The position numbers and the translations under genes are program-made. The notes under the pieces were generated by a model. The model was not told the origin of the DNA. It made no database searches and saw only the letters and a program-made list of their open reading frames with translations. A stretch of DNA of 61,627 nt, filler included, from Hausera hauseri (taxonomy: Eukaryota): the NCBI GenBank assembly GCA_046269625.1. It is 10 parts of 10 records of this genome, joined end to end, with 100 filler letters (N's around TTAATTAATTAA, not from the genome) between each part and the next. Parts side by side here need not be neighbours in the genome. Positions count along the whole stretch, not along the records: positions 34,530 to 44,752 come from JBJURY010219964.1; 9 more parts are not named here. One strand, 5' to 3'. Shown here piece by piece: positions 1 to 59,621 of the stretch; position 1 is the first letter of the stretch, and every line of letters starts with the position of its first letter.

Positions 1-13
1 GTATAAGTCAGGT

Positions 14-5308: not shown

Positions 5309-5316
5309 CATATGTA

Positions 5317-6573
5317 GTGGTTAACCAACAAACAGGACACGAAGCAACGACTACCACCACCCAACTCAGAAAAGATGATCAAACATTCCCAGAGGAACCC
5401 AAAGTAGAAAACAAGAGTGACATGTGTAAATCAAGATACGTGGTTCCCCCACTCAGTGGAAGCGAATCAGAAACATCGGTAGAAACAAGCCAAAGTGACG
5501 AAGAAACATCCGAAGAAGAGAGCGAAAGCGAGACGCGGTATGCAATAGCAGGTCCATATCGAACCGGAAAAGAAACACGAGCGAGAAATGAAACTGAACC
5601 AAGAACAGATAAAGAAACGAACACGTATGCACCTTATATGAATACCAGAGCAGCAGCGAGGAGAAGATTCGAAGAAGCTCGCAATCAGCAGTTGAAGAGG
5701 AGAAGAACTATAAGAAGCAATTCATCCGATGATAGTGATATACCGTACCTAGAAAGGAAACGACGTTTAGAAGACAGAGAAAGAAGAGAGAGGCAAGAAG
5801 CTCAAGAAACGCATGGAGATGATGAAGAAAATCAGAGCGACTTAGAAGATAGCAGTTCAGAAACTTTGGTAGACGACACTGATACAGAAACGTCAGAGTT
5901 AGACCAAATGGTGAAAAGATTAAAAAGGTTACGGGATTCGAGCACATCAACAGAAGACGAACCAAAAGCTAAAATTACTCGACAAGCAGAATTGAGAAGG
6001 AAACATATAAAGAAAGCAGAAGAGATTAAGAAGAAGCAAGAAAGGGAAAGGAGACAAGCAGAAGCTCGTATAGAGGAAATACACCGAACAGCAGATGGAA
6101 AAGATAGGGAAGTTCAAGACATAAGGAAAACTATCGAAAAGTTAAACGACGACAAAATGAAAGTGGATATGAAAGTTGAATTGCAAGACAAGGTAAGGGA
6201 AGTAGAAAGCCGTTTGGCCCAACTAGAAGAAGAAAATGCCGAAAAGATAGACATTATAAAAAAGCTAAGAAAGCAGTTGACGGAATTAGTCAGTCAAAAA
6301 GAACCACCATGCACAGTAAGGAAGAAAAAGGTGAGACGCGTGAAACAGAAAACAGGAGAAAGTATGGAAAGCGAAGACGCAGAAGAAAGTACACAGGGTA
6401 AAAGTCGACCAAAAGAAATAGCCGAAGTAGAAGATAAATCGCTGAGTAAAGGGCAAACTGCCATTCATTCAGTAGTAAGCGAGGTAGTAGTCAGCAAGGA
6501 TAAAAGGGAAAGAGAGTCAGAGAATATCGCTAAACTATTTGATGTTATGCAAATGATGATGAAGTTAGCATAA
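5317..6573 (+). CDS. Acidic/coiled-coil extension downstream of integrase (probably the frameshifted Pol C-terminal tail)
   Basis: 418-aa open frame that continues the post-integrase frame (..NWIPGYKILEKTGPITYVV..); Ser/Glu-rich then heptad-like K/E/Q-rich. Confidence 0.55.
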   Translation: MVNQQTGHEATTTTTQLRKDDQTFPEEPKVENKSDMCKSRYVVPPLSGSESETSVETSQSDEETSEEESESETRYAIAGPYRTGKETRARNETEPRTDKETNTYAPYMNTRAAARRRFEEARNQQLKRRRTIRSNSSDDSDIPYLERKRRLEDRERRERQEAQETHGDDEENQSDLEDSSSETLVDDTDTETSELDQMVKRLKRLRDSSTSTEDEPKAKITRQAELRRKHIKKAEEIKKKQERERRQAEARIEEIHRTADGKDREVQDIRKTIEKLNDDKMKVDMKVELQDKVREVESRLAQLEEENAEKIDIIKKLRKQLTELVSQKEPPCTVRKKKVRRVKQKTGESMESEDAEESTQGKSRPKEIAEVEDKSLSKGQTAIHSVVSEVVVSKDKRERESENIAKLFDVMQMMMKLA

Positions 6574-6650
6574 CGGTAATAAGGAATGTATAATTCCACA
6601 GATAACAATGAACACGCATCAATTGATGATCACAGTCCTTGTAAGCTGGA

Positions 6651-18354: not shown

Positions 18355-21300
18355 TGTTTTACTTCAACTCTTATTTCGCCCCACCCACTTTCGCTTGTCA
18401 TCGTTGCATGACAAAGCAACCTTTTTATTTGTGATGGTATACAACTGGTGTTCAATCGATCGTATGGTCGTTTGAGACACAACAGACTTTCCTTCTTCTT
18501 CTTCTTGTCCATTATAGACACGCCGATAATCACCGTGATTTATTTCAGTCCGTTTCAGCTGGATGCCTTTTGCCCGCATTTTCGGCCCACAGTCTGCCAG
18601 AAGACTGTAGCACTTTGGGAGCAAAAATATCCATTTCCTGTATCGAACCCGGCTTTCACTTTCGTCCTTAATCAGCCGATTTTGTTTATTATTGCGCTGC
18701 TGTATAGAGGATGAATCTGCGAGTAGCTGGACGTGTCCAGTAGTCCATTTGACATTATTTGTTGGAGCAGCTGGTCTTGACTGATGTTTTTTAGCTCAAG
18801 GAAAAAGCTGTCTGTGTCACTGGCAACGATACTGATCTCATAGCCGCCAAAAATTTTCAGGTAACGTGCCAAGTCACGATACTGTAGCTCCAACATTCGC
18901 AACTTGCTAAGATCCAATACCACTTGTCCTATATAGCATGGTCGGCCCAGTACGACTTATTCTCTGTTTAGAAGCACGGAAATGTGCATTGATCGCCTGA
19001 ACTGAGCCTTGCTGGTGTACGTTACCTGTCGTTTTTCGTTGTTGCACAGGCGCACATTGAGCCGCTTCTTCAAATTCTCCACTGTTTTCCCGTAGAGTGT
19101 ATTGTTTTGAGCATGTAATAGTCCTTTTTGAACTTTGTACAAGCTGCGGCTCGTTTTTCTGAATTTCCATCAATGTACGCCTTGAATATCGGCGCCTAAT
19201 TGAAGCGGATTGCACTATGCAGCAGTGTGACGCGTACACCGAGCTGCATGTAAAGATGCAGTAGACGCCAATGAACCACGTAATTCAATTTGGGATCATG
19301 CGTCATGAGCAGTTTTTACTTTTGAGCCGGGCAGATAGTGAATGATTGGTGCCACGGATAATTAGTCCAGAACGTCATGCAGCTCATCTGGTACTAAAAA
19401 ATCTACTTTCATTAGGTAGCTAACTGAGCTAATTTCTGTCGTGTTTTCTGCGGCTGGCAGACTGTCCAGCAATGTATCGAGTTTTTGTTTGTCAATTATC
19501 CATTCAAATGAACCGTACGGCAAGGGTTGTGAAAGCGCCCAGCCGTACAGATTATTAATATCGATGTAAAACATTGACGTTATATCATTGTCATCACTGG
19601 TTACGTGATGCTTGTTGACAAATATCATGCCGCCACAAATACCAACATCAAATAGTCGGTACATTTCCGGGTCTTGCAACAACTCAATTTCCCTGTCCAG
19701 CAACATTAGTGCCGATGTCCAACCCATCCCCGATATGGAGTAAAGGTGTAGCAGCTGCAGCCTATCTTCTGCCAACGCTTTAGTCTGAAATACATCGGCT
19801 AACAAGTAAACGTCCAGTTTCAGGTACTGGGGCATGTACGCCAACATGTTTCTGCAGCTGAGTTCTGTCCACGCTTCCTGTGCTCTGTGGTACTCGTCCT
19901 CAGTGATTCCGGTCCATTGTGGCGGCAGTTCATCTGTTGTCTGAAGCCGCTCGTACGACACAGCAAAATCATATGGGATTATGCCTTTGTTGCATGCAAT
20001 ATGCGCAGGGAACTGCGTCAGCGTTATGGACACATCCGGCAAGACACTTACGAACTTTCCTATAGTCTCATTGAGGAACTGAAATGAGTCAAGAAACCGT
20101 ACCTGGAACTAGTTTATGTGTGTCGATAGGGACAGGTACTTCTCCATCGTTGTTGGGATTATGGATAGCTCCCAGTGCGGAAATCCATTTATGGCTCATT
20201 TCAGAATATGGTGACTGTCATAACCTCGAAAGTTATGAAATATCACTAGTAGGAATGGCCGAACACGCCTTGCCAAATTGCATGCATTATATGCTGCTCC
20301 AAGGTATCCTCCGGTAAAGTGGTCGTGATCAGGTACGAGCCGTTCCTGTACATCGAACGGCAATATTTTGTGGCACAGGTAGCGTTCGTCAGTGGAAGCG
20401 AAAAGAAACGGTTTATATTCGTCTGCCTAGACCAATTGCTTCATGCTGTTATTCCGATACCACGGAGCGATTTACGCTTCCACTATTGTCTCCAACTGAT
20501 GCAGAAATCGCGGACACAGTTTCATCCGTGGAAAACGTAGTATTGTGGTTATCCGTCGGCTTCAATTGACACAACCAGCACGCTTATGGCGATTGGGACA
20601 TGCTTTTGTCGTAGATGTTGTGCCGTGGTAAAATTGCCTCGATATTAGCAGATACCGCCTATGCCGGATTGCCTGTTGTTGACAAATCACTGAATCTCAG
20701 TTCCTTTTTCACTGGCATGACATACATTGTTGTTTCTGCTGCATTTTTCCTGCATAGCACCACATGCTTTTCCCACGTCGCTTCTGATCTAAAGCCATTT
20801 GCAGCGTATGCGTTTTTGGACAAACTGATCATGGTCCATGTTTATTAGTCTATCCAAATTTGTTTCTGCCACATAATAAAAGTTTTCTGCATTTTCCAAC
20901 AGCAGCAAATTTACTGAGCGTCTATTTGAGTTCCGAATGAGGTAGATTATGTCTACATGGGAATTTTTGTATATTTCTTCATCTGCCGGTATCTTTATGA
21001 TTGTGTTGTACCGAAACACGTTTATTGACAATGTTGGATTGCGCCATTCAAATGCCGGGATGGTTTTGAGTTTCATCGACATCCAGTTTTCGTCGTAGAT
21101 CAATTCGGAGAAATAATTACTGTATTGCTTTGGACAATTTGCTTGATGTCTGGACACTTAGTCATATTTTAATACGGCCAGAATACTGTAAAGAAAACAG
21201 TATTTATTGTTCGTATTTTGAACATTTACTATCTCCGGAGACTGCTTTAATGCCGCACGTGTCGGTATAAATGACCGTCCGGACAGGTATATCATGTCAC

Positions 21301-27327: not shown

Positions 27328-28460
27328 ACATGGAAATTAGCGCATTGTGCAGATTGTCATCAAAATCCGCGATGTCCTAAAGATGCAGAAGATTATGAAA
27401 AAGTATAACTGATTACGATGAATACAATATTAATTGTTAAATGAACGAAATTTTACAGGCAGTCAGGTACAATTACAGTTGTGATGAACAATTTGCATTA
27501 ATTGAAGTTATTGGTATGGTGAAATCAGTACAGAGTCAGTTGATAAAATTAGATGCGAGTTATTCTGAAGGAATCCGTAATGCCATTTATGTAGAATTGC
27601 AGTCATTTGTGCAATGTACACTGAATGAACCATATAGAAAGGCACAGAAGAATAAGAAGACAATTATTTCATGGCTTATTGATAGTATTCGTGCAGCATG
27701 TCAGGATAAAATTGCGTCATCATCATCGTCATCGTGTATAGGAACTGGAACAGGAGATGGGAATAATGAAGGTGGATTAGCAAAGAGTACAAGTAGTAGT
27801 ACATTAGGATCAGCAGGGACAACATCACAACAAGGTACTGGAGGAGGAGGAGGAGGAAAGAAACAATCGATAATTAGTGGTAGTGAACAACAAGCAGCAA
27901 CAGAATCAATAAGACAACGAATGAAATGTCGAGATGTAGGTCCATCATCCACACAATTGTATTTAGTACGAACAACAGTAGAATCGATGGTAGCTGTTCG
28001 TGCCGGTGGTAAAAATTCATTACGAAAAGATCTCGATCCATCGAGTATTGCTGCATTGGAACAATTCCATCGACAATCATTCTATTGGCCATATCTACTT
28101 AATTTGAGTGAAACTGTCTTTCATTGTTGTGATATGAGTCAGTTCTGGTTTCGGGAATTCTTCCTCGAATTAACAAATGGTCAACGAGTACAATTTCCCA
28201 TTGAAATGTCAATTCCATGGATACTCACTGATCATATCTTGGAAACTCAGAATCCCGCATTTACCGAATTACTTCTTTATCCTCTCGATCTTTACAATGA
28301 CAGTGCTCGATCTGCTTTATTGACATTTCAGCGACGATATCTTTATGATGAAATTGAGGCTGAGGCTAATTTGGCATTTGATCAACTCGTTTTCAAATTA
28401 GCTGGACAAATATTCGTTCACTATAAACAATATGCAGCATCTATTTTACTGGACATATAA
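27328..28460 (+). pseudogene. CYFIP: CYFIP/Sra-1 internal fragment (exon 27328-27402, 56-bp intron 27403-27458, exon 27459-28460)
   Basis: WKLAH..CP..AEDYEK|AVRYNYS, VGPSSTQLY.VRT, CCDMSQFWFREFFLE, QFPIEMSIPWILTDHIL, LYPLDLYNDSA, LYDEIEAE.NL.FDQLVFKL; GT-AG intron; homology starts and ends abruptly. Confidence 0.88.
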
Positions 28461-28631
28461 CATACCGATGTCCCTCTTGTACATTAACATATCAGAATGC
28501 CAACGCCTTTACAAAGCATATGAGAGAAACATTTTGTAAAAGTATTTACTTTTCGTCAACGCGAACAGTCCTTTGAAAATTTAAGTTATTTATTTTTACA
28601 TGCCCGACGAACCCATGTCAATCCGAAGAAA

Positions 28632-30720
28632 ATGAAGTTAATTTTAATCTCAACGACTTATTTCGTCTTAACAATCGGAATTTTGGTCTTTCTGTCGGGA
28701 TTTTTGATGAAAAGATCTGAAATTCATGATGTGGCAACTTGCGAACAGAATTTCGAATTCTGCCAATATTCCCCATACAAGCAAATTGTAATTCTGTTGG
28801 TCGATACACTGAAATTCGAATTCATGGATCCCGCACTTCTAAAATCCAGTTCCAATTATTTCCACGGTCGACTCAACGTTATTCATTCATTAACAGCCCA
28901 GTCTAATTTGTCTATGTACATCGCTTATTTCACATCAGACCCACCGACGACTACTCTTCAAAGAATCAAAGGTTTGACGACATGTTCATTGCCGACGTTC
29001 ATCGACATCAGTAGCAATTTTGGTAGTACCAAATTGCAAGAGAACAATCTCATGAGTCAGTGGGCCAATTCGAAATGTAACTTGAAATTTGTCGGTGACC
29101 AAACATGACCGGATTTGTTCCCGTCACAATTTAACACGTCACAGCCCCATCCGTCGTTCAAGGTCAAGGACCTGGACACTGTCGATCGGCACGTTGAACA
29201 ATTTATTCTGAATTCTTTTGTCGACAAATCCGGCACGAATGTAGCACCAGAAATAATTGTCGAACACACGCTCGGTATCGATCATTGCGGTCATACGTTC
29301 GGTAGGAATCATGCGCAGATGCAAAGGAAATTGGAGGAATTGAATGGTTTTCTGAAGCAGTTGGTGGATCATGTCGATAACGAAACCCTACTCGTCGTAT
29401 TCGGTGATCACGGAATGACGTCAAATGGAGATAATGGCGGTGATTCTGAAGAAGAAACTGATTCTGGTTTATTGATTGTATCGGGAAAACAGTTAAATTA
29501 TCACAAAAAACACAAAGCCATTCCAAATCCATGGCAGTAGAAACACTAAATCAAATTGACTGGGTTCCACCGTCAGCTGCTATGACCGGTGTTGCGATAC
29601 CGTTTTCCAATTTAGGTGTATTAAAAACGGATTTGATGGTGTCCAATAAGCGTGAGGAACTTTCTATTAGCCAAAATGTAAAGCAGATTGCCAAGTACGT
29701 AAATGAATACAAAAACCGATTTGGAAATCTTAACCTGCTTTCCGAATTGAAACGATTTCTTAGTCATGTATTAAACGAGTCTTTGTTTAAAACTGAGCAA
29801 TCTCTTCGAAATTTACGTGATATTCGGGACTTCTTCAAAACAAAATGGGCACGATTTAACATCCCACCGATAGTTGGTGCTATTTTCTGTTGCATACCGC
29901 ATGTAGTGGTGTGCTCAATATCATCATCCAGGTCAAAATCAATGAACGAATACCCACCATTCGAATGTTAACTTACTCCGTTTATCTGATCGTTTCAATA
30001 CTTTTGTTAGTTTCCCACAGGGGACACGTTTTCTGGATTATTCGGAATGCTACTTGTTGTCGAATTAACTCGAACTAAAGTCCAGAATGTTAAATATAAT
30101 TTGTCGTTTGACTACATGACTTATTTTGTGATACTTATCGGTCTCCTGAGCAATCTGCTTTGCTTTAGCAACAGTTTCATCGTATCTGAGGACCGAATTG
30201 TACAGTTTTTCTTGCAGACCATTTTAGGAGACAAGTTTGTCCAATGTTTATGTCCCTTGACAAAAAATTTCTCACAAAAAAGTTAAACAAAAACCGAACA
30301 TTTACGAATCTCTTTGGAAAATTCGCGAATTCAAGACAGTTTTGGTTCAGTTTCCTTTTTGCTTGTTTTGGAATGTTCAGCTTATTTTTGGGTTTAAGTT
30401 ATAAAATAGGTCGTGAGGAACAGAAAGGCTGGTATGAAACAATGAATTTCAACGACCTGAATATCAGATGGCTGGTTATCTTACCCCCTGTTCTTGTGAT
30501 CGTTTATACACTTTGGCTTGGACACAGTGAAAATAACTGCTCAACTACATTTAACGTGCTTTTTGCCAAGTATTTTATACCCCTATCCACAGTCTTTTTA
30601 TTTTTTCATCTCTCGTTACAATTGGTGAGCGATTCTCGTTATGAACATATGTCAAACATTTCGAATTTTCCCCAAGGCGCCATTTTCTATTTCATTATTC
30701 GTTCTCGTTGTCCTCTTTGC
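28632..30720 (+). pseudogene. PIGO: GPI ethanolamine-phosphate transferase 3 (PIG-O/Gpi13), disrupted
   Basis: GFLMKR, DPPTTTLQRIKGLTT.SLPTFID, PSFKVKDLDTVD, LGIDHCGH, GDHGMT..GD.GG, IPFSNLG, FSNSFIVSE; Trp-to-TGA at ~29106, frameshifts, 3' truncation. Confidence 0.88.
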
Positions 30721-34429: not shown

Positions 34430-34800
34430 NNNNNNNNNNNNNNNNNNNNNNNNNNNNNNNNNNNNNNNNNNNNTTAATTAATTAANNNNNNNNNNNNNNN
34501 NNNNNNNNNNNNNNNNNNNNNNNNNNNNNAAATATATAAGATGATCGAAGAAACAAACTTTATGCGGAAACGGAATGCGACTTGTGATTTCTATCCAAGA
34601 CTGAGAGATATCCGCCTAAAAGGGATCCAACATTTGACAGCCAATCCCATTGAGGAAGTTACAATTCGAGATCTTAAAACCTTAGACTTTTGTCCCGAAT
34701 ATCGGTCAATTGTTGAAGAAGCGGTGCAGTTCTTACATCGTCCAAGAATGGAGGGATGGAAAGGACCAAAGGCATCATATCGAACTGATTAAAATGAAGA

Positions 34801-36160
34801 ATGACCACCACCTTAGCTTCGAAGAGATTAAATTTATAAAAATTATTAGATGCGATAGATCCAGATTTAAAAAGTATTAACGAGATGTATGAAGTAGCGC
34901 TAATGATGGCAGAAATGGCAGGGATCAGTGACAAGAAATTAAGACACTTGTAGCAACAGATACAGCAAGTCGAAGAAACTTGCATTAAGACCAAATAGAG
35001 AGCGATGAGATTAGACGAACTACCTAGAGAATTCGAAGTCTATAAAAACAAATACGCCCTGACAGAAGCAGAAAAGGCTGACAAGTCGAAATTCGTTCAA
35101 AGGTGGCAAAAAGATGTCACTTCCGAACTAACAAGCTATCAAGAACAAGGACTGATTTTGGCTGAAGAATTATGTTCGTTGTTAACACTGCTATACCAAA
35201 CTTCTACGAATGGGCGCTGTTTCCGAACGACGAAAATGGTCCAATTGCAACAGATCCTACAGGAACTCCGAAAAACCATAGAGATTGCAGGTGTAAGTGG
35301 ACCAACCGATATAACCACAAGGGGCTATCAACTGCCGGACGATGAAACCAAACCAGATTGGGAGACATATTTAGACGCAATGATTGCCGAAAACCCAAAA
35401 ACTCCCATACGATTAAGTGAAATGCAGATATATTCTTCGGACCAAAGATTTAACGTGGGAATGCTTCTGGACCCAGCACAAACCGAAAAAGATTTAATTC
35501 AGTTGACTGAAGTAAACCTCACTGAAATTCAATTAAGACAGTTGGTCCCTATTCTAACTAAATTAGCTAGCGAAGGTACGATTTTTAGTACAGTACCTAA
35601 GCTTTTACTCAAAGAATATGCTAAAATCCTAAAGACAAGGGCCGAGGAAACGATTATTGCAAAGATAGCATCTGACTGGATGAACGAGAAGGAACATGAG
35701 TTCACTACGCGCTCCCTTGTAAAGGATGTATTATTGTGGATAAGGAACAATGGACACGCCCATGAGCTGAGCTATAGACTTTATTTTAGAGGGAGGATAC
35801 TAGATGAATCGGAACTATTAATAAAAGTCGGAATTATTCCAGGTGAAGTAAATCAGGTAGTGGTAACCATTACTACCGACGAAACAAAGGAGGAGGCTAT
35901 AAGGAAGGATAAAGCAGAACAGTGAGTAGGTCGAATAATAGGAGTCCAAGATGAGGCAGTATATTTCGAGCACCTGCAGACGAACGAAGATAATGAGCAA
36001 TACAATAAAAATTTAGTACCCATCAACGGCAGTGTGCCTGCTGTAACAAAACAGAAGCATCCTGTCGGTAGACCACGAAAGACAGGAGAAGAAATCAACT
36101 ATAATGGAGACCTAATCAGAGTTGAGGCAAATGTCTATACCAACTTTCAGTGTGGACAAT
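34801..36160 (+). pseudogene. Accessory protein with ubiquitin-like domain (~35653-35868) and AT-hook (~36058-36081)
   Basis: One frame with a few stops, including ORF 35005-35925; SLVKDVLLWI..YRLYFRGRILDESELL..VGI.PG; HPVGRPRK. Confidence 0.55.
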
Positions 36161-36587
36161 AAAGAACTGAACGAACTTATGAAAAATTTGATACGAATAG
36201 TAAAACACTCTAATCTCGGCGGTGATATATTAGGTGAGAAAGAGAAGGCCATATCTAATGCTGCTAAGGCCATGAAGGGCCTTCGGTGTAAATTAGTTAG
36301 AAGTACCTTAAGCGATGAAGTAATGATTGAGAGAATTATGGGGGAAAATACCATAGAAGAATTAAGAAAAAGTTGCTATATCTGGCTATCAAAACTAACC
36401 CAAACCGAGAGAATAAATTTAACAAGGCCACTAGCTTGGCAAGGAGGGCTTCCAAAAAACTACCTCTGGAAGTGAACTGGTCAAAGTTATTCGAGAAAGA
36501 AGAAGAACATCAAAGTAGATTCCTTTAGGTAACAATAGATTCGAAGATCTGCTACGAAATGTAAACGGGAATCACAGAGGAAATGAA

Positions 36588-38516
36588 TTGAACTGGCTAA
36601 TCCGCTTGCTGACCATTATGATGTTAATAAGACAGTTGGGTGCAGTTACAATATATGATTGTGACAAATTTAGACTTGGCCAAAAATACTCATTAATGGA
36701 CTTAGAAATGTTCGAAGACGCGAGACCACACAAATTAGAAACAAAAGAGAAAAGTTACGTACTATATCAGAAACGCGAACTAATTACATTGGATAGAGTA
36801 AAATGTTTGTTGCGGCGATCTCGCAGCATTTTCTATTGTGGACTGGTACAAGGACACTCGTCAGTAATTAAGCCAACAGCCTCACTAATGCCGATGAATT
36901 TAGAACGTCAGCATTGTAAGCAAACTAGAGAGACGTGAAGAATAAAATGGGACGGCATGAAACTGGAAATGCAACAAGGAAAAATAATCAAAGTGTATAA
37001 AGTGGTGGCAGGAAGACTAGACATGCACACCGGACATTGTCATTGTGCGGAATACGATACCGGGAAAGAATTAGAGTCGAAAATCGTAGTAGTAAATTTT
37101 TATAAAACCGAAATGCGCATACAGGAGGTGATGTTCCATAGCGTTACTAAACTCTACACCGAGAACCACAAGTGCCACATTCAGGATGGCACATGCCCAT
37201 TCCGAAGTTCCGTAGTAATTTTGGAACCGCCGACTAAGGCCGATTGCAAGTTTATTAGAATTAAGGAGCTTAAATTCAATGAGGCGACGGGGAAACGGTA
37301 TTTAAGTAGTACAGAGACTAATTCTAAAACACGAAAAGATGTGGCTGAACAGTCCACACCTACGATACTAATCTTTGATACTCACGGACTAAAGTTTGTG
37401 AAGAAAGATGTACTCACAAGATGTGACGTCATAATGTACGCCACTAGATATGAAGCATTTTTCGTCGCGGAGACGGAAATAAGCGCCAGAACGTTCAAAC
37501 TTGAGACTCGGGACATCCGGATTGAAGATTACTTGAAAAACAGAGATGATTATTTCTACTATAAGGGACAAGCAGGAATAGCCGAGCTTTACCACAAAAT
37601 GATAACGAACGACTGCCAGTTGGATTTGGAATTCATGAGGACTAAGATGCCCCTAATATATGCCAATCCCGAGTTGGCATCACCAATAATTCATATGAAG
37701 GAAGGTGTTTTTGGACGGGTAACCGTAGAGATCTTATTAACATATGAGTGTGAGGAGAAAGATGTACCTATTAATGTGGAAGAGAAGAGGTGTATACAAG
37801 AGCTTCCCGTAATATTTCAGGACGTACCTAGATTAGTAACACAAATTACATGAGTATTGTTGGCAAATTCTACGCAACCGACAGTCTTGAGAGATTGCAA
37901 GACCAGCCTGGGCGAAACGATGTTTAGACGTAGCGAAATCGACTGGGTAAGTTTACCGAACGGCGGTATTATTGCACCGCCTACCAAGTTGACAGGGACA
38001 AATTTAATAAAAGGAATAACCGATGATAAATTTCAAGATACCGCCGCAAAGAGTATTCACCGACCAAAAGAAGTAGAGGCGTTCAGACAATTTCTCGCCT
38101 TTCCTCGTTAGCGTAAGCACGAACTGAATAGAGCAGTGGATACAATATTAGAGGATTCGTGCTACCAAGCGAAATGGGAGTCATTATTCGGTGATGGATA
38201 TTATAAAAAGGTAACTACGGAAATATTACATAAAATCTGGGGAAGATTCCTGATATTCGGACAAGCCGCGTCAGGATTTTTAGCGATATATTTCTTAATT
38301 CAACTGGTAAAAGCTATAATTCAAGCAATCATAAATGGATACGAAATATTCACCTTGACAGGATTCTGGTGCAAAATTTTGACGGCTATTATCACGCCCT
38401 TTGGCAAATTCTTAAGGGCTTGCAAAGAAAGTAGATGGAAAACTAAAATGGAACGGCACATAGGCTATCAAATCGAAATCGTAAAAGAAGGTACCTATTC
38501 AAGCGAGATTTTATAA
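36588..38516 (+). pseudogene. env: Chuvirus-like envelope glycoprotein
   Basis: One frame across ORFs 36588/36957/37857/38136 with three internal stops; hydrophobic leader then IYDC, KC..RSIFYCG..HSS, LY....DCQL, NPE....KEG.FG...E....C, CIQELPV, PP, F.AFP, C-terminal hydrophobic IWGRF..FGQAASG..IY....K.II..IINGY. Confidence 0.78.
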
Positions 38517-38655
38517 ATACTATGAAGAAATAACTCAGACGATGACGAGCCTAAGGAAGGAGACGCTATACCCAAGTCGAACATACATAGAAACCATTCT
38601 ATTGTGAAATTACCACTACCAATACTGCCGTTGACGGTACCTGTATACGAAGACT

Positions 38656-41600
38656 GTGAAAAGCAATCTGAGTTCGTATCAGACAGAAATTTATCGGAAA
38701 CCGTTCAGTCCAGAGGATCCTTACGAAGGAACGAAACACTACAGAGTGTTTTGTAAGGTGGGAAAACCGTCTATATCATGCCGTCGCCCAGCGGTCGACG
38801 ATCGCGGTATAATCTATTCACCTAGAATGCCTAGAACAAACGAAACGCAGTCAAAATTTGCCAGAAACCGTGAGGTACACAATCTCCAGAACCAGGATAT
38901 TCAGAAGCCAGTTAGAAACCAAGGAATAGAAAACACGAATGGTGCAAATAATGAACTATACCCTATTGGAGAACTAAGACTGTTAATCGGCCAGCCCGTG
39001 GGAACTACGGAGGTTACTATTAACGGTTACAAAGTGTCAGCAATCCGACACCCTCGGGTAAAACCAAACTATTACGGTACGATAATGGAAGGAAGGCAAT
39101 TCGCAAAAATTCAATTGGAAGACTGGGAGGTATATGCGCTGATAGACACAGGATCCGAAATATAACTGATTAAATATGATTCAATACCACAATTTTTACG
39201 GAAACAATTGTATCCGCTTCCCATAATGGATCCAGGAAGCGTTGAAGCCTTCGGACAATCATCGAAAAGTAAATTCCGTTGGAAACCGGAAATTCACATA
39301 ATGGGACAATCTTTTCATCATGAATTCTCAGTAATGGAGCAACTAACGGATGATGTAGTGCTAGGATGTGATTTACTATGACAACTACCCAATATAGCAA
39401 TTGATTTCAATGCAGGCAAGTTGATAGAACTTGGCCCAATAAAAGAAGTTAGAACCACCAAAGATAGGAAGTTCGGAGAAGTGTGGATTCCAATAGATGA
39501 AAGCATACCACCCAGAACTGAAGTACTCATATATGCCCAAATACGTCAAGATGACGACCATGCAGTATATTTCGAACCAAAGGAATCGCTTAATCCAAAC
39601 CTTGTACTTAGCAATGTTTTGACAAGAGTATCAACAAGCCGCGTACCAATCAGAGTAGCGAGTAATGCGCCAACTTCAACCAAACTGTACGCTAATACCA
39701 CTTTGAGACACATCTATAGAGTATCGTTAATTACCATCGAAGAGAAACCGTTTAAGGGTGCCGAATTTCCACACTACGTCGAGACTAAATTTTCACCGCA
39801 ATTATATTGTAGATTTTACGAATTACTTTGCCGCTATAGCTCGATTATCTCGAGAGATGAAGAGGATATTGGCCGAGCCAGAACCTTAAGACGCACGATT
39901 CCAATTAAAAAGAAGCCTGGTTCCAACGACAAAATAGTTTTAGAAGATCAAAAAATACCCAAATGGTACCCTTTTCCGTACTCGTTAAGGCCAGAAATAA
40001 CTAAGGAAATTGAACGAATGTTAAAGGTCGACATAATAAGACCAAGCTATAGGTCTTGGTATTCGCCTATACTCATGGTTAAGAAAAAAGGTACCAATAA
40101 GCACCGATTTTGTATCGACTACCGAGTGTTAAACACACTTATGATGAAAGACTCCTTTCCATTACCATCGGTAAAGGAAACCTTGGATATGCTTTCGGGA
40201 GCTAAATGGTTCACCACGCTCGATCTACAATCCAGATATTGGCAAGTAGAGATAGTGGAGGAAGATCGGTATAAAACGGCATTTAAGACACATGATGGTA
40301 TATATGAATTTAAAGTTATGCCATTTGGGATAACTACCGGACCCGCCATTTTTACTCGCATGATGAACAAAATGATAATGGGATTGGAACATGCATTTGC
40401 CTTTTTGGACGACGTCATGATTGCGTCGAAAACAGAAGAGGATCATTTAAAGGATATTGAGGGTACATTTAAGAGACTGGAGCAAGCTGGACTAAAACTG
40501 AATCCCAAGAAGTGCAAATAGGCTTAGAATGCTGTGTCCTACCTTGAACATATAGTTGGAGAAGGAGGATCGAAGCAGAATAAATCACTATTAAGTAAGA
40601 TATTGGACTGCATGGAACCTCAGAATCAGAAGGAATTAAGACACTGATTAGGGTTATATGGGTATTGTGCTACCTACATACCAGATAACGCGAAAATAAA
40701 CGCACTTTTATATCGTTTGCTAAAAAGGGATCAAGTGGAAATTGGCCGATGTCGAACAGAAAGCTTTCGATGAAATGAAAAAGATTCTAACTAGTGAACC
40801 TTTATGAAGATATCCCGACTTCAACCTACCGTTTATAATAAAAACGGATGCCAGTAAGGAAGGTATCGGATATGAACTGGCCCAACAACAAGAATACGAG
40901 GAGCTGGAACACTAGATTGCATATTGATGGCGTTCCCTAAAGATAGTAGAGAAGAACTATTCCGTTACGGAGTTAGAAACGCTGGCAATGAAGGAAGCAC
41001 TACGACACTTTAACGTGTATGTTTATGGGCAAAGGATTGTAATAGTTTCCGATCATAAAGCAGATACGACCTTAAATGGTAGGGCAAATAATCCAACCTG
41101 TAGACTTAACAGATGAATCGAGGAGATCTCACGGTATAATATTGAATTCCAATACAAACCCGGAAATAAACATGTCGATGCCGATGCACTCTCTAAGCTT
41201 AAAACAAAAGCTAGCGCGGTTAAGGTAATTAAGAAAGCCCACCTCGAAGAATTAGTAGAGAGACAACGGACCCTTACTTTAGATAAGGCATTGAAGATTT
41301 CAGTCGAACAAAGAAAGGACAGAATTATACAACAAATTATGGAGTTCGTTGATTCCAACGAAACACCAAAAGGTCAGCAGTTACGGAAACACCTACGAAG
41401 ATATGGTCACAAATACCACTTCACAAGAGACTTGAACCATGAAAGTGTGTTGTACTACGAACGGAAAGGACGAAAATTGGTAGTCATACCAAAGGGATTG
41501 CCAACAGAGGTACAAATGGCCGAGCACGATTTGTATTTAGCCGGACATATGTCGTGGAAAAAGACCTTGGAAAGAATATTAAATAAATATTATTGGCCGA

Positions 41601-42625
41601 GCGTTTACATTGATGTGAGGAATTGGGTGAATGCTTGTGAAGTATGCGCAACTAAACAAAGAAAAGTGAGAAACTACATCGCCGAACTTACACCCATCAG
41701 CGTGCCGGATAGACCGATGCAAGCAACGTCCATGGATATCGTAGGACTATTACCTACGACCCACAAAAAAACAAATATATTTTGACTTGTGTAAATGGAT
41801 TAACTCATTTCGTTGAACTTATAGCATTAATAGACCAAAAGGCCAAGACTCTGGCAGAAGTAGTAGTCCAGAAGATTATTTGCAGATACGGACCGCCCGA
41901 TCAAATTTTGACAGACCGAGGGAGAAATTTTACGAGCGAATTATTTGACAGAATTACCAAAATTTTCGAAATTGAACGACTAACTACGACAGCTTATCAT
42001 CCCCAATTCAATGGAATGGTTGAACGGATGAACGCGACAGTTACACGAACCTTGTCGACAGTAGTTGCAAAGGACCAGAAAGACTGGGACGAGTTCTTGG
42101 AAGGTACACAATTCGTCATTAACACTACCCCGCATCCTGTGACAGGATTCACTCCATTTTTTATTATGTACGGCAGAGAAACTGTACTGCCTACAGATTT
42201 AGGATTGATTCCCTACACAAAAAACGGAAGATTTGGAGAAAAATTTTGTCGAGGAATTACAATTGAAATTACACAAGTGTTGGGAACTAGCCAAGGAATT
42301 ATCTAAAAAATACCAGGAACAATTTAAGAAGCAATACGACAAGAAGGCTAAACCACACGACCTAGAACCAGGAAACTGGGTTTACATACACTATCCAGTG
42401 GCCAAAAAAGGCACATCTCTTAAACTTACCAGAACCGGTAGAGGGCCTTATGAAGTTACCACAACTACACCGACCACAGTTTATATAAATAAAAATGGCA
42501 AGGAAAAGGTTATATCGATTCAGAGAATAGTTAAAACCGAGATAAGACCAAGTAAACGCCACAATCTACGTTCTGGCAAAGCGAAATCGGAGCATACGAA
42601 CAAGGAAAGAAAACATCGTCCATAA
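38656..42625 (+). pseudogene. pol: Pol (protease, RT, RNase H, integrase with GPY motif), disrupted
   Basis: ALIDTGS; FCIDYRVLN, TLDLQSRYWQ, MPFG, FLDD; TDASKEG, YSVTELE, DADALS; H..GH..C..C, MDIVG, TDRGRNF, YHPQFNGMVER, RGPYEV. Confidence 0.93.
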
Positions 42626-42639
42626 CGGTTAGGCCGATA

Positions 42640-44015
42640 ACGTATGTGCAAATAGTCCTCGCCTTATCGTTAATTGCTTCGTATGTACTGAAGGTGAAAT
42701 CGATAACTCAAATCTAAAAATTACAATATGCGGCAAGACGAAAGGATATCCAAAATTTGCAATCACTTAGAGTGTACGATATGGACTAGAGCAAATCGTG
42801 TGCGTGGTTCGAAGCGAGTGAACCTATTCAAAACCATGTGAAATTTCAAATAATATTTGTAACTAGAACCACAATGAGAACATGCGATTTTCCGTATGGA
42901 ATTCATAAGAAGTTTTGCGATTTGGATTTCGGACAAACCTACCTATACAGGTTTCAAATGTTTTACTATAATCCACCTAAAGCCCAAGCCTATATAATTA
43001 CCGATCTATTAATAAGAATGCCTCAACAAAATGGCACAAGCCAAGCCAAAACAGAGGAGATAATCCAAAGTACTGACCCATTTAAACGGCTCTTAGATTA
43101 TAACATTATTGGGATTTCCAAAGACCTAAAGGATCAATGTATTCGAATAAGACCAAAATAGAACTGCCAAGAGACAGGAAAATTTTTGTCCGATTTGTAC
43201 CACTGAATTCCTCGACTCCTATTCCTGAGTACTTCTATCTGGCCCGACGACGACCTACTGTGTGCTATAAACTGCAACTAGGACAGAAGTATCAGTTACA
43301 ACTCGATTTGTACAATACGTATCCCGGAGAACAAAGCACTTATTTAAGGTGATACCGTCCAAAAATCGGAATATGAAAGCTTCCGTTCCCAACCACTACG
43401 AGAAAACCGTCTACTGTTTCAAGTACAACTCCCACTACTATGATCGTCATTTTAGATAAAATGCCCAAAAAGGAACAATGAATCATTCCGGTTAAGATTT
43501 TAGCAAAACGTAATAGAATTCTATTTTACGCTGAAGAAACGTTAACCCAAGATGTCAAAATTGGATGTCGCACCCTGCATACAAATCAAATTATAATACT
43601 GAGAAAGAATAGTCAGGAAACTGAATGCAAATCATTACGACCGCAGCATAATTATATAGTCCGAATTACCGCAAAGGGTGGGAAAACTAGGACTTTTACA
43701 GTACGAACTCCCGACAACAAAACTAATGTAATGCAGTATAAAGATCTTAGTACTCAAAATGCGTTTACCATAAACGGTTCTATTGAGCCAAACAAATTAC
43801 CGATAATAGCTATATTTAATTTGTCAGTTTTTGTTCTTGTCACGTTAACGGCAATAATTTTTCTAGTTTCCAAAAATTGTAATAAACGCGATAGAAATCG
43901 GACCCCAAAAGGGTTGAAATGGGGTTTAGAGGAGAATAGACGGGTTCGGTTATACGCAATGCGGAATCCCAAGGATGCTCGAGCATACCTCCTAAGAGAT
44001 ATGATCCCGTACTAG
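42640..44015 (+). pseudogene. Type I membrane protein with signal peptide, three FN3-like repeats, S/T linker and TM helix
   Basis: YVQIVLALSLIASYVL leader; repeats CDLDFGQTYLYRF, CYKLQLGQKYQLQL, CKSLRPQHNYIVRITA; PTTTRKPSTVSSTTPTT; TM LPIIAIFNLSVFVLVTLTAIIFLV then SKNCNKR; stops and one frameshift. Confidence 0.55.
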
Positions 44016-44324
44016 CCCACCCATCAGCAATTGTACGTACATGTCGCTGATGGGGAAATTTAATACAGGATCGTAGGACAATCCTCGAGTACACAAAAAG
44101 GACAACAATGGAAATTTAGTACCTATGAACTATGTTGCTATAACCTCATGAATTACGCTCTAGAGTTCAGAATTACAGAACTTCCGACCAAAATCATAAT
44201 TGAGATGACTTGGCGAACAGAAGTAATGAAGCCATTACCACCGTTACTATATATACAAAAACCATCGGAAGACGAGATATAGCAAAATGGAGAATCTTAA
44301 AGATTAATTCCAGACGGTAGGAAC

Positions 44325-44752
44325 ACCCGGATATTAGCCGTAAACAATGGAGAGAAGGATGACGGATAGTATATTCCGATCGAGGTTTCTATCAGAAATA
44401 CAAATGCAGAACTTATAAACAAAATAATTGCGCCTTGAGCTAGGGTAAAAGATACCTTCCCCGACGTTACAGGGATTACGAAAGTATAGTTCGAAAAGGG
44501 AAAATATTTCTTAGAGATCCAGGAAGATATAAGCCATTGCTTATATGGATACGTTGTTACCGGATTTTGATTGCACGAAGCGTTAGAACGGCTAGGAATT
44601 AGACAAGAATATATATCCGGAATTCGGGAACTAAGTCGAAGCCCAGCTGTCGTGAGCCAGGTAGAAAACGCATTGATGAGGAAAAGAGGATGCCTACTTC
44701 CGTCAGCATCACGCGAATCACGATTTAAAATGATGCTAGAAGCCATTAATTG
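44325..44752 (+). pseudogene. DEDDh (REX4/ISG20-like) 3'-5' exonuclease-fold domain, degenerate
   Basis: RILAVNN..IPIEVSI.N..LINKIIAP..RVKD..VTGIT..EIQEDI..LYGYVVTG..L..LGI..IREL; same frame as 43137-44015. Confidence 0.55.
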
Positions 44753-46109: not shown

Positions 46110-47544
46110 CTACATATCATCTCCATAGTACAACGATTCCATATCCAAACCAACTTCTTCGTAGTCTTTTTCAAGACATTCCAAATTTTCTCTTGCTTCA
46201 GTAAATTCTCCTTCTTCCATTCCTTCGCCAATATACCAATGAACGAAAGCCCGTTTAGAATACATCAGGTCGAATTTGTGGTCTAATCTAGCCCATGCTT
46301 CAGCAATCGCGGTCGTATTGCTTAACATACAGACGGCCTTGTTAACTTTAGCCATTTCGCTACCTACAACGACGGATGGCGGCTGACAATTAACACCAAC
46401 TTTGAAACCAGTCGGACACCAATCAACAAATTGTATGGCCTTTCTTGCTTTAATAGAACTAATTGCTGCATTTACGTCTTTCGGAAAAACATCGCCACGA
46501 TAGAGAAGGCAACATGCCATGTATTTTCCATGTCTTGGATCACATTTTACCATTTGATTAAATGGTTCAAAACAGGAATTTGTGATTTCTTGCACAGTGA
46601 ATTGTTCGTGATGGGCCTTTGCAGAGGATATAACAGGAGCATATGAAGCTAATGGAAAATGGACTCTCGGATATGGTACCAAATTTGTCTGGAATTCTGT
46701 AAGGTCCACGTTTAAAGCCCCACTGAATCTCAACGATGCAGTTATTGAGCTTACAATTTGACTAATAAGTCTATTCAAATTTTTATAAGTCGGTCTCTCC
46801 ACACAAAGATTACGCTGACAAATATCATAAATGGCTTCGTTGTCAACCATAAACACACAATCACTGAATTCTAATGTCGAGTGCGTCGTTAAAATGGAAT
46901 TGTACGGCTCAACAACAGCCGTCGAAACTCTTGGTGCAGGATACACTGCAAATTCAAGTCTTAACTTTTTCCCGTATTCAACACTCAGTTTCTCCATCAA
47001 TAACGACGTAAATCCCGATCCAGTTCCTCCTCCGAATGAGTGGAATAAAAGAAACCCTTGCAAGCCTGAACAGATGTCGGCAACTTTTCGTAGTCTGTTG
47101 ATAACTTTATCAATTATTTCTTTACCGATTGTATAATGGCCTCTCGCGTAATTATTAGCTGCATCCTCCTTACCAGTGATCAGTTGCTCTGGATGATACA
47201 ATTGCCGATATGGTCCTGTTCGAACTTCATCTGAATAATTTCAATACCAAAGTCAATCAATATGATTAACATATTACCGATAACATTCGGTTCTAAGTCA
47301 ATGAACAGAGCTCTTGGAACAAATTTTCCAAATCCCGTTTCACTAAAAAACGTATTGAAACAGTCTTCATTTCCTAGAGTTGGTCTCGTATCAGCCATCT
47401 GCCCATCGGGACTAATACCATGTTCGATACAATACAACTCCCAACAAGCATTTCCCATTTGGACTCCAGCTTGTCCAATATGAATATTTATTACTTCACG
47501 CTACGATAAATTATATACAAAAATGAACTAAACTACCTTACCAT
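46110..47544 (-). CDS. TUBA: Alpha-tubulin, intact; exons 47544-47542, 47500-47278, 47230-46110 (448 aa)
   Basis: [47 protein letters not shown]; GT-AG introns of 41 and 47 bp after codon 1 and within codon 76; spliced length 1347 nt, open. Confidence 0.96.
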
Positions 47545-54093: not shown

Positions 54094-54300
54094 AGGGGCC
54101 AATTTTTGTCTCGAGTGGGGTCAATTTTTATCCCGAAGGGGGTCAATTTTTATGTCCAGGAGGTCAATTTCTATCTCGAGGGCGTCAATTTTCATCCCGA
54201 GGGGGTCAATTTTTATGTCGAGGGGATCTATTTTTATCTCGAGGGGTCAATTTTTATCTCGAGGAGTTCAATTTTTGTATTGAGGGTGGTCAATTTGGGG
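54094..54300. repeat. ~21-bp minisatellite (GAGGGGGTCAATTTTTATCTC-like)
   Basis: About 10 degenerate tandem units. Confidence 0.9.
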
Positions 54301-54821: not shown

Positions 54822-55812
54822 TTAACTCCAATCAAATTTGATACTTATGCTAGAAAGAATGTTCAAATACCGAAACCAATCCATTTCTACGACGATATCA
54901 ATATAGACTGGAGTCAATAAGTAAATTAATGCAAGAGATCTCCTAGCTCTATCCAACTCATGGAATACAGTAAGAGCGTCTTCTGGACTAAGACTAGCAC
55001 TTAAGACTGCTCGTCCGAGAGCTGTAGATTGTATCAATCGATTGTTATCATGCAATGTTGATAACATTTCAGAACTTAATACATTATTTTCTGATTTTTC
55101 TTCTATGCAAATCAAGTCACTTTTGACGCAGTCGAGTACCAAATCAGACTTAGAAAAATCAATCATATTGTCACTTATCGTTAAAAATGCCAAAAAATGT
55201 ACTCTGTAAATATGAAACACATTCCCCGACCCTAGTGACAATAGTTTCAAGCAAAGCACGCTTGAGAGCCAATGAATTATTCTGGTCCAAAGCATTTTTA
55301 AGCGGTTTTAATCCGCCTTCAACATCTTTCGTCTTACAAACTAATATGTTTTCCACTTTTAATAATTGAGTATCTAGCCATTGGGCAATGACGTTAAGAT
55401 TGGGAAGTGTAGCACCCATGCCCACCATTTGAATTTTCTTTGCTAAATATTCATCACTATAAAACTTTGAAACAAAGGATATTTTTGTGAACAATAATTT
55501 TAACAAGTACCCTCTGTGACTATCGCCCATTATATGCAGTTCGTCTATTACGACCAAACCCAAATCTCCAAACTTTTTATTATCAATAAGTTTATTAATC
55601 AATCAATTTACCTTTTCTATTGTACAAACGGCAATATCAACAGCATCGAAACCGCCTTTTGGATTTCCATCTCCCATAAAACAACCAATTTTCAGTCCAG
55701 CTCCACCAAAAACTTTTTAAAAATAAATCATCTTTTCTCGTGATACCGACATGTATGGGAGAATGAGCGAAGCCTTTTGTTTAGTTTCCAAAACGCGCTT
55801 AATTAAAATCAA
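54822..55812 (-). pseudogene. POLQ: DNA polymerase theta (POLQ/mus308) helicase-region fragment with internal deletions
   Basis: ILPY.SVSREK, DIAVCTIEK, VVIDELH.MGDSHRGYLL.LL.TK, GM.ATLPNL..A.WL, KRALLE.I, T.LGRAVLSASLSP..AL.VF.EL.RAR, IYLLTP; second RecA domain missing; stops. Confidence 0.8.
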
Positions 55813-57452: not shown

Positions 57453-59359
57453 CGTCGAGCTTCATATATACCAACATATAATCCAAAAGACAGCTACAAC
57501 TGTATTTTGACCAAACCAGTTGTGCTTCCTCATAATCTATATCACTAACTGCATCCCATTTCGGTGGTAACTCGTTAATAGACCGCAAGTCACTAAAAGA
57601 TTTGGCTGCAGTATATGAAAAATACCTATTCCCTAAATAATATCAGAAGGAAGAGTCGTTTCTGTCAATGGGTAGCTATCTAATTTGGAGGCTAATGTTT
57701 TGAGTGAAGCGGATAAAAACTGCAACGAGTCGAGATACCGAATAGATACAGACTTTTTGCTGAGCAGCGTATCATTGCTTGCATTGTTAGGAACTTTTCA
57801 GTTGTTTGCGGAATAACACTTAATTCCCAACTTCCGAATTTATTTAATGCGTGTTTTAACATATGATGAACATAATATCCACGCAAAGTATGAAAAATTA
57901 CAGGCAAATTATACCTCATCTTAAGAGCCAAGTTACATTTGTTACAAACTGGACCTAAGCATTTACCCGTAAAATGGCAGCGATCACGATCAAATTTAGT
58001 GCCCTTTTCGTGGCGTAAGTAACATGCTGTAGCATTTTTAAACTGAAACCATTCAGCTGGTGTTAACGGGATCATTGGCTTTTTGGCACTTTCATACCAT
58101 GGGAAAACAAGTTTCTTAACAATTTGCTCTAAAGAGGCGAAAAACGCAACTATGGAATTTTCACACACAAATTGTCTATATTCAACACCTGTTGATAGAA
58201 CTAACAAGAGAACGGCTGCAGCAGGCAAATGAATATGCTTCACTTTATCGTCAGAACACAGAACAAATTCAAAGTCCGCATATACGACAAAAGGCGAATT
58301 TATCGATTTTTTCCAGTTCTTAAACTCACAAAACTTATTTTCTGGCATTATGTACATGCCATGAGCTTGGAAGAAGAATTGTACATTGACAAATGCTTAG
58401 GGTAAGGGGTGTCAAGCCTAAAACTATGTAAACATTTCTCACACACATTTACATTGAATAATAATTTTCTTACTGTCAATATTGAATAAACGCTTAAGGT
58501 TGGGAACAGCAACATAGTGAAAGTGATTATCATTCTCAAAAATTACCAAGTTAACTACGGCTCCATTGGGATTTTTGCTGCTGTACAAAATATCGATTAA
58601 TGATTTTTTTACTATGTCCTCGTCAGAATCCACATCATCTTCCTCATAAAACAAAAAGGCATAAATTGCCAACTGTGGATTCTGCCTCTCATATTTACTT
58701 ATGTTGCATAATTTCATCGGCATGTCATCCAAATAATATTTCAGCTCGCTTAAATAAGGAATGTAATTATTAACTCTATTCCTATGATGATGATAATCAA
58801 AGACAGAATACTTGGTCACTGCCAGAATAAAGTAATAGAAACACAGTTTCCTCGTTTTGTACGTTAATAACGGCCATAGCATTTTTAAAGCTTCAGATGT
58901 TGGAATATAGGACATACCAGACAAGTAGTATAGTGGGCTAGTTTTGACTATATGAAAACACTATTTCAATATTTTAACTACCTTCCACCCTCTACCCATT
59001 TCAGAAAAATTCTCATTTGTCTCCTTTAAACTATCAGCTACAGTTTGTGGAAATGACTGCTCATAAGGAACAGCTCTGTGTACAATATAAGCCTCCTTTG
59101 CATTACACTCAACATTTTCAAACAGAATCTCAAGACCGTATTGAACCTTATAAAACGGCAATTGAGAAGTGCACAAATGTAAAGTAGATAGTATATCATT
59201 AGACGGTCGACGAGAAGTCAGATTGTCAGGTGCAACATCAAAACAAAGCTGGAAATAGTTATTACTAACAACAGATTGTACATCGAGTCTTATTTTCTGT
59301 ATAGGCTTTTTAAACTGTTCGTCAAATTTACGTTTCTTATTTATACTGTGATCCGGCAT
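57453..59359 (-). pseudogene. Polinton/adintovirus-type PolB, N-terminal and exonuclease half
   Basis: GRGWKV, SYIPT, HFHYV, CEKCLHSF, PFVVYADFE, RDRCHFTGK..CNKCNL, FHTLRGY, YMKLD; cut by contig end. Confidence 0.85.
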
Positions 59360-59621
59360 TTTTGTCCCTTTGACTGGTTGTTGTTTATAGATGTAGTTGG
59401 TTGTATTTGCTGATCTGCAACAAATTGTTTGGCCATTTCAATCACTGTGAGGATATAATCGAGAACGGAATATCTAAATTTATATTAAAAACATTTTTGA
59501 ATTTTAAAAATTAGATTTAAAAGTGTAATATTAAAAGCATAATTTAAATTTAGAATTTTTGTTTCCAAGTAAGTATTTTGGATTACAATAAAAATTTTCT
59601 ACAACTCGTGTTTACTTTTCA

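Follow-up and report, generated by a model that had tools for sequence, protein, structure and literature searches.

The window analysed here is a stretch of 61,627 nt from the Hausera hauseri assembly GCA_046269625.1, composed of ten contigs with N spacers between them, and the element under study lies on one of these, JBJURY010219964.1 (window positions 34530-44752; all coordinates are those of the window, and all features of this contig are on the plus strand). A decayed Ty3/gypsy retrotransposon, coding-like to both ends, fills the whole contig, and in it an envelope (Env) gene precedes the protease (PR), reverse transcriptase (RT), RNase H (RH) and integrase (IN) domains of Pol. The contig is cut at both ends, and Gag, the long terminal repeats (LTRs) and the primer-binding site of the element are missing. 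None of the ten listed repeat families of at least 40 nt falls inside the contig.

The Env frame runs stop-free from 36519 into a hydrophobic leader that begins at 36594, with a predicted mature start at 36645. Read with an X at each of its three internal stops (36936, 37851 and 38109), the frame 36519-38516 matches the Pfam family PF24664 (Monjiviricetes_fusion) with 153 bits, against a curated cut-off of 27, and an E-value of 1.1e-44; the match spans residues 28-645 and positions 6-611 of the 653-position profile. Furthermore, each of the three stop-free pieces of Env exceeds this cut-off on its own. The gB-type, chuvirus-like ectodomain (36645-38252) has 15 cysteines and contains the three stops. 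It is followed by a membrane region (38253-38402, within PF24664 521-611) that comprises the anchor, recognised by hydropathy at 38253-38309 and following, and a shorter second hydrophobic stretch (38364-38402). By its profile matches, the Env is a fusogen of the chuvirus/mononegavirus type. An initial examination of the DNA (the sequence-only reading) had proposed a chuvirus-like glycoprotein, with a motif pattern typical of Jingchuvirales glycoproteins, some of which have been captured by LTR retrotransposons; the nearly full-length match bears out the fusogen type, while a Jingchuvirales origin is not established, as the Pfam family spans Monjiviricetes. No Env homologue was found in protein searches at near or longer lengths, in metagenome contigs, in viral contigs or among PDB sequences. 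A single-sequence model of Env reached a predicted local distance difference test score (pLDDT) of 29.7, too low to judge a class III fold, and the assignment to this fold rests on the available text of Chary and Hayashi (PMC13524379), where an ancient association of env with retrotransposons is argued.

The leader itself (36594-36644) is an internal signal-like hydrophobic segment (Kyte-Doolittle 19-mer mean of 1.71) that, as had been remarked at the outset, has no ATG at its start. Two ATGs that went unmentioned at that stage, 36618 and 36621, are the earliest in the Env frame and lie within the hydrophobic stretch, 9 and 8 codons ahead of the predicted cleavage site. These were considered as the start of an ordinary signal peptide and rejected, since 8-9 residues are too short for one.

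The Pol region opens with an aspartic protease bearing a DTG motif (39103-39387; Pfam RVP, E 3.2e-4), followed by a PR-RT spacer (39430-39740) that occupies the position of the dUTPase-like domain of the planarian element Burro and through which natural gypsy Pols align by tblastn. Within this spacer hmmscan gave no match to the dUTPase family PF00692; the published Burro call was made, according to the text available, with HHpred. The RT and RNase H (40078-41110; RVT_1, E 6e-34, with frames from tblastn) contain stops and one frame switch at ~40.73 kb, and the integrase (41489-42541; zinc finger, core and C-terminal domains by Pfam and tblastn) has switches at ~41.77 and ~42.21 kb. The order PR-RT-RH-IN and the gypsy-type RT, seen both by Pfam and by tblastn with four natural gypsy Pols, place the element in Ty3/gypsy, with ENV upstream of POL. 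From PR to IN (39112-42541), the alignment of these four Pols crosses three frame switches, and nine stops lie in the coding frames; because of these lesions in Pol, the contig copy is dead. A search with Pol in metagenome contigs gave no matches.

The family to which this copy belongs is abundant. In one public sequencing run, which may be that of the window's own sample and from which all copy evidence is drawn, 19,106 contigs match the element, most of them less than 95% alike, and all 30 bins of the contig are covered. Three coding-frame stops in Pol are among the 40 substitution places listed (2,420 more exist), and at least 99.7% of the depth reads otherwise there; the 40 places include no Env stop. 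Neither the Env of this family nor its upstream or downstream parts occur on the other contigs of the window. These data bear on the suggestion that a chuvirus glycoprotein was inserted by chance, as an endogenous viral element, ahead of an unrelated gypsy pol. Endogenous Jingchuvirales glycoproteins are often found beside fragmentary gypsy elements, as the consulted portion of PMC10084718 describes; here, however, the 30 bins are covered end to end at high depth in a single run, Env and Pol have strand, A-rich skew and codon pattern in common, and the order of domains is that described for Burro (PMC6431247, as excerpted). We regard a chance insertion as largely refuted and very improbable.

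Upstream of the leader, a stop-free frame of 308 aa (34999-35922), traced with the codon model described below, is predicted to be mostly helical. It gave no Gag or zinc-knuckle match in Pfam and no match in PDB, and was rejected as a recognisable Gag on these grounds; its single-sequence model (pLDDT 39.3) was not usable. Part of it, 35689-35886, weakly resembles a ubiquitin/SUMO-like (Ubl) domain, with three PDB matches at E 0.34-1.3 (two of them named ISG15) and Pfam Rad60-SLD_2 at E 0.077, all below significance. This stretch lies ~240 codons ahead of the leader, the same place as the Ubi2/SUMO-like domain of Burro. Between it and the leader, a basic motif found by eye (36064-36081) is presumably AT-hook-like; the available description of Burro (PMC6431247) names no AT-hook. 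The remaining ~160 codons before the leader (36116-36593), with two frame switches, occupy the position of the BCL2-like domain of Burro; no BCL2 likeness was found in PDB or Pfam for this region, which the frame switches break up.

Frames were traced with a model of codon periodicity that had been trained on verified parts and chose correctly for all 43 windows held out from training. Its path makes three switches ahead of the leader (~36.13, 36.3-36.47 and 36.52 kb), where the sequence-only reading had counted two, near 36140 and 36450, and one more in the linker between Env and PR. On the best path there is a single stop between the Ubl and the leader, compared with 9.1 ± 2.0 after shuffling (0 of 500 shuffles were as low). 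The frame upstream of the leader, described from the beginning as coding-like, is therefore indeed depleted of stops, with a weak codon-periodicity signal. Stop depletion shows coding, not fusion, and it is the other copies that address fusion.

Five of the eight tabulated frame switches contain a matching length variant in other copies: both of those just before the leader (in 3 and 8 contigs), one in the integrase, which serves as a positive control, and two downstream. When the variant sites are counted, five of six fall within intervals that make up 3.6% of the contig, for a P of 4e-7 that is rough, as the table had been seen before the switches were picked, two net-zero variant sites were omitted and 12 of the 26 variant entries were listed. 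The sixth site, at ~34.74 kb and in one contig, matches no tabulated switch. The 12 listed entries include no length variant for the three remaining switches, which are of the opposite kind (at ~36.13 kb, in the linker between Env and Pol, and a second one inside the integrase), nor for the switch at ~40.73 kb inside Pol. The integrase switch that lacks a variant must be mutational, and the blank at the Env-Pol switch is uninformative because the two such switches inside Pol are blank too.

Since other copies lack both breaks just before the leader, continuity of the upstream frame with Env at this point is supported. That the shifts near 36140, 36450 and 38700-38820 might be mutational had been put forward for testing, and the copies bear this out for the two breaks just before the leader, while the entries listed include no variant for ~36.13 kb or for the linker. 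Likewise, the Burro-type feature of an Env in frame with upstream domains is found across both breaks before the leader, with the ~36.13 kb switch standing without copy evidence. This continuity has to be set against the possibility that splicing yields a subgenomic RNA for Env, which brings in a start codon ahead of the leader, whether or not a polyprotein is made too. The env of Drosophila gypsy is made from a spliced RNA, an AG at 36527 has 11 pyrimidines out of 20, the highest of the 17 AG sites listed, and codon periodicity is weak immediately ahead of the leader. Other copies are nevertheless unbroken there, so that upstream frame and Env are continuous, and the upstream stretch is depleted of stops; moreover, splicing and the polyprotein route are not mutually exclusive. 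A spliced Env seems to us quite unlikely.

At the other end of Env, the linker from the Env tail to the protease (38450-39102) is likewise stop-depleted, with one frame switch and two stops. On the best path from the transmembrane (TM) segment to the protease, these two stops compare with 9.8 ± 2.5 after shuffling, and 1 of 500 shuffles was as low. Past the TM region the Env frame meets stops at 38514 and 38523 and is then open over 38526-38753, while the +1 frame is open over 38635-39162 and includes the protease DTG at ~39145, giving an overlap of 119 nt (38635-38753). The sequence-only reading had likewise followed a coding-like frame past stops into overlap with a +1 pre-protease open reading frame (ORF) at 38656; the overlap stands, and the switch, which had been put at 38700-38820, is now placed within 38635-38753. 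The rate of decay in Pol (three switches and nine stops in 3.4 kb, in a region that has to read as one frame from RT to IN) leads one to expect ~0.6 switches and 1.7 stops in the linker, where one and two are seen. Hence, as Pol decays at a similar rate, the lesions in these 0.65 kb are ordinary decay.

The overlap could also be read as functional, with the upstream domains and Env forming one ORF and ribosomes entering Pol through a programmed shift of frame or a read-through event in the linker, so that little Pol would be made. Most gag-pol systems do keep Pol scarce, a one-to-one ratio of Gag, Env and Pol would be odd, and no copy variant falls in the 119 nt among the listed entries. In contrast, decay at the rate of Pol would account for ~0.6 switches in a stretch of this length, and the frame is continuous in Burro ORF1 (as given in the excerpted PMC6431247) and in P0040, a natural protein encoded by a single ORF. 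A programmed event in the linker is, in our view, fairly unlikely.

P0040 emerged from a search with Pol among long proteins that gave 267 matches, and it is the only one of the 120 listed to carry PF24664. Its 2,499 aa comprise a capsid (weak), a CCHC motif (weak), a hydrophobic segment at 625-643, PF24664, a TM segment at 1174-1192, PR (weak), RT, RH and IN. It shows that such a layout works; it is not proof for the family studied here. Comparison by phmmer of the Env and of the downstream protein with the 120 listed Pol matches gave nothing convincing. Another long protein, P0073 of Daphnia magna (2,303 aa), has RT, RNase H and PF12259 in one predicted product, which may be a gene-model fusion; we take PF12259 to be of the baculovirus F type. 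Taking together stop depletion, the rate of decay and the single ORF of P0040, a continuation from Env into Pol is likely. The earlier proposal that the fusogen is freed from a precursor possibly including Pol is supported by the copies on its upstream side; the continuation into Pol is likely, and release by signals is predicted.

The integrase is not the end of the coding sequence. Directly behind it lies a second signal-like hydrophobic segment (42637-42690; Kyte-Doolittle 1.72), which the sequence-only reading overlooked along with the unit that it introduces: a putative second ectodomain (42691-43802) in which three similar Cys-x2-Leu...Tyr motifs, fibronectin type III (FN3)-like by eye, are accompanied by a stalk rich in Thr, Ser and Pro, then a strong TM segment (43803-43859; Kyte-Doolittle 2.63) and a stop-depleted tail that ends at the contig edge (43860-44752). 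The ectodomain (~370 codons) has 5 stops against 19.9 ± 3.2 after shuffling, and the codon model supports its first half only; the tail has 8 against 16.2 ± 2.5, with a negative codon model and no Pfam match. The FN3 likeness amounts to a Pfam fn3 match at E 0.091 in the third repeat only, and comparison of the ectodomain with PDB gave nothing significant. The breaks at ~42.6 kb, between IN and this unit (3 contigs), and at ~43.1 kb (6 contigs) are not present in other copies. Because the unit is stop-depleted and other copies lack these breaks, the frame of the integrase appears to extend into a second unit of signal, ectodomain and TM segment. We found no description of a second membrane protein after IN in the literature, where a search directed at it gave one unrelated paper, although the Burro figure or the supplements of Grohme 2018 may show one.

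Comparison with known systems was made on the basis of published descriptions, in the portions available. In Burro, env lies in frame between gag and pol, with Ubl-BCL2-Env-PR-dUTPase-like-RT in one ORF of 4,873 aa (Arkhipova and Yushenova, PMC6431247). The giant planarian gypsy elements Burro/GYPSM1 resemble our element in having Env before PR, an Env that matches mononegavirus-type fusion proteins, a PR-RT spacer, a Ubl ahead of Env (ours being weak), a high copy number and more than 10 kb of continuous coding sequence (PMC6431247). The likeness was judged from this description rather than by sequence comparison, and Burro exceeds 25 kb whereas the contig has 10.2 kb. The BCL2, MATH, BIR, ankyrin, Gag and dUTPase-like domains of Burro were not detected in the contig, their positions being partly beyond its edge; conversely, the Burro text names no second membrane protein after IN, where our element has a putative one (PMC6431247). 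The polyprotein layout is therefore not new, having been published for planarian Burro.

Elements of the GAG-ENV-POL type with gB-type ENV are reported from Nematoda, Bryozoa and Platyhelminthes by Chary and Hayashi and are not monophyletic (PMC13524379). Among them, Smed_errantivirus_1-6 (Platyhelminthes C1a) also have Env before Pol, with a similar order of cysteines and similar flanks by eye, Smed_5 and Smed_6 being closest (PMC13524379); in the Env segment of Smed_errantivirus_5, 8 of 8 cysteines have counterparts in order with like flanks, again by eye and unscored. Unlike our dead copy, these elements are intact, with GAG, ENV and POL treated as ORFs; the words 'polyprotein', 'fused' and 'single ORF' are absent from the preprint text, and 'fibronectin' from the eLife text, as far as these were available (PMC13524379). 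The nematode NERVs, cited in PMC13524379, share ENV before POL in a metavirus but belong to a separate host clade. Mosquito Anakin and the Jingchuvirales G proteins belong to the same broad glycoprotein family, Anakin being a BEL/Pao element (PMC7642597 and PMC10084718, as excerpted). Our element differs from Anakin in being Ty3/gypsy by domain order and matches and in having Env ahead of Pol. A nematode NERV with a continuous gag-env-pro-pol frame was reportedly described by Sacco et al. in 2022. Host genes on other contigs of the window (Cyfip, tubulin and ribophorin) are those of a eukaryote, and we infer that the host is an animal, likely a flatworm, the latter from the likeness to Burro and the Schmidtea elements.

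The contig is best explained as a decayed Ty3/gypsy retrotransposon of high copy number in which a gB-type (chuvirus-like) fusion gene precedes pol. It is likely a flatworm element of the Burro type that, when active, was likely translated as one polyprotein releasing Env; we place the probability of this reading at roughly 0.75. In such an element, Gag (beyond the contig edge) and accessory domains (the Ubl and the domain in the BCL2 position) would be made in the cytosol, after which the internal hydrophobic segment would thread the Env ectodomain into the endoplasmic reticulum and signal peptidase would cut behind it, leaving the upstream part anchored in the membrane. Bcl-2 proteins are tail-anchored, and an anchored upstream part would therefore suit the BCL2-position domain. 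The TM segment of Env would stop transfer, so that PR-RT-RH-IN would emerge as a cytosolic tail of Env from which the element's protease frees Pol. The second internal signal, after IN, would repeat the threading for the second membrane protein, and particles may bud with a trimeric class III fusogen. A bolder version, tentative and in our judgement doubtful, would have the active element encode a multi-pass polyprotein in the style of flaviviruses, from which two surface proteins are released internally, namely the gB-type fusogen ahead of Pol and, joined to the end of the integrase, a type I membrane protein that combines three FN3-like repeats with a mucin-like stalk and acts separately in attachment or host modulation; the Env signal would double as the tail anchor of the BCL2-position domain, and Pol would enter the particle as the cytosolic tail of Env.

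Several observations weigh against the polyprotein reading. The codon model gives a weak signal at both Env junctions and labels them as non-coding at two of three penalties, as it does the RNase H region. If the stretch 38364-38402 were to cross the membrane, Pol would be placed in the lumen; P0040 has one clear TM segment there. Near 36527 the sequence resembles a splice acceptor. The contig lacks Gag, the Ubl is below significance, and BCL2 and dUTPase were not detected. P0040 is distant, with 30% identity in PR-RT and an Env-to-Env E-value of 0.084. No copy was found that bridges Env to Pol, and no variant falls in 38635-38753 or at ~36.13 kb among the 12 of 26 entries listed. Finally, the window has a GC content of about 30-45% per kb, compared with an AT content above 70% in Schmidtea mediterranea (PMC11410931, as excerpted).

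Four other contigs of the window carry different RT-bearing elements. At 1-6650 (plus strand) there is a different gypsy element, with two zinc knuckles in Gag, an almost intact Pol and no Env likeness to the element described above; after its IN, a long charged frame (5140-6573, plus strand) is likely a coiled-coil and has no family match. The Cyfip gene (27441-28460, plus strand; FragX_IP, E 2e-106) has a stop-free frame of 339 codons with a Ser/Gly-rich insertion. It is followed at 28524-29971 (plus strand) by frames apparently broken by stops, which by eye we take to be like a GPI ethanolamine-phosphate transferase; the first piece has no Pfam match. A tubulin gene, alpha-type by eye, has one long exon and lies on the minus strand (46110-47500), where a DNA_pol_B_2 match (19362-20108), pieces of a DNA polymerase theta-type helicase (54822-55602; POLQ_helical and DEAD matches) and frames that by eye resemble a Maverick/Polinton-associated protein (57692-59437) are also found. 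A repeat family of 44-53 nt links positions 20278, 48664 and 57933, an 8-nt tandem repeat lies at a contig start (44853-44940), and a 21-nt satellite-like array at 54096-54286.

An Env inside a Gag-Pol polyprotein departs from the rule among retroviruses that env is expressed by separate splicing; in the sources available, Burro was described with this layout in 2019, and catalogues of GAG-ENV-POL elements exist. We found no test of the processing of a Gag-Env-Pol precursor in the literature. Planarians under smedwi-2 RNAi show strong derepression of BURRO1 (PMC8532177, as excerpted), so that precursor processing could be read from natural material. The copy described here adds sequence-level support for release by internal signals. 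Should the second unit indeed prove to be an attachment protein, binding and fusion would be divided between two proteins in a retrotransposon, as they are in herpesviruses and paramyxoviruses.

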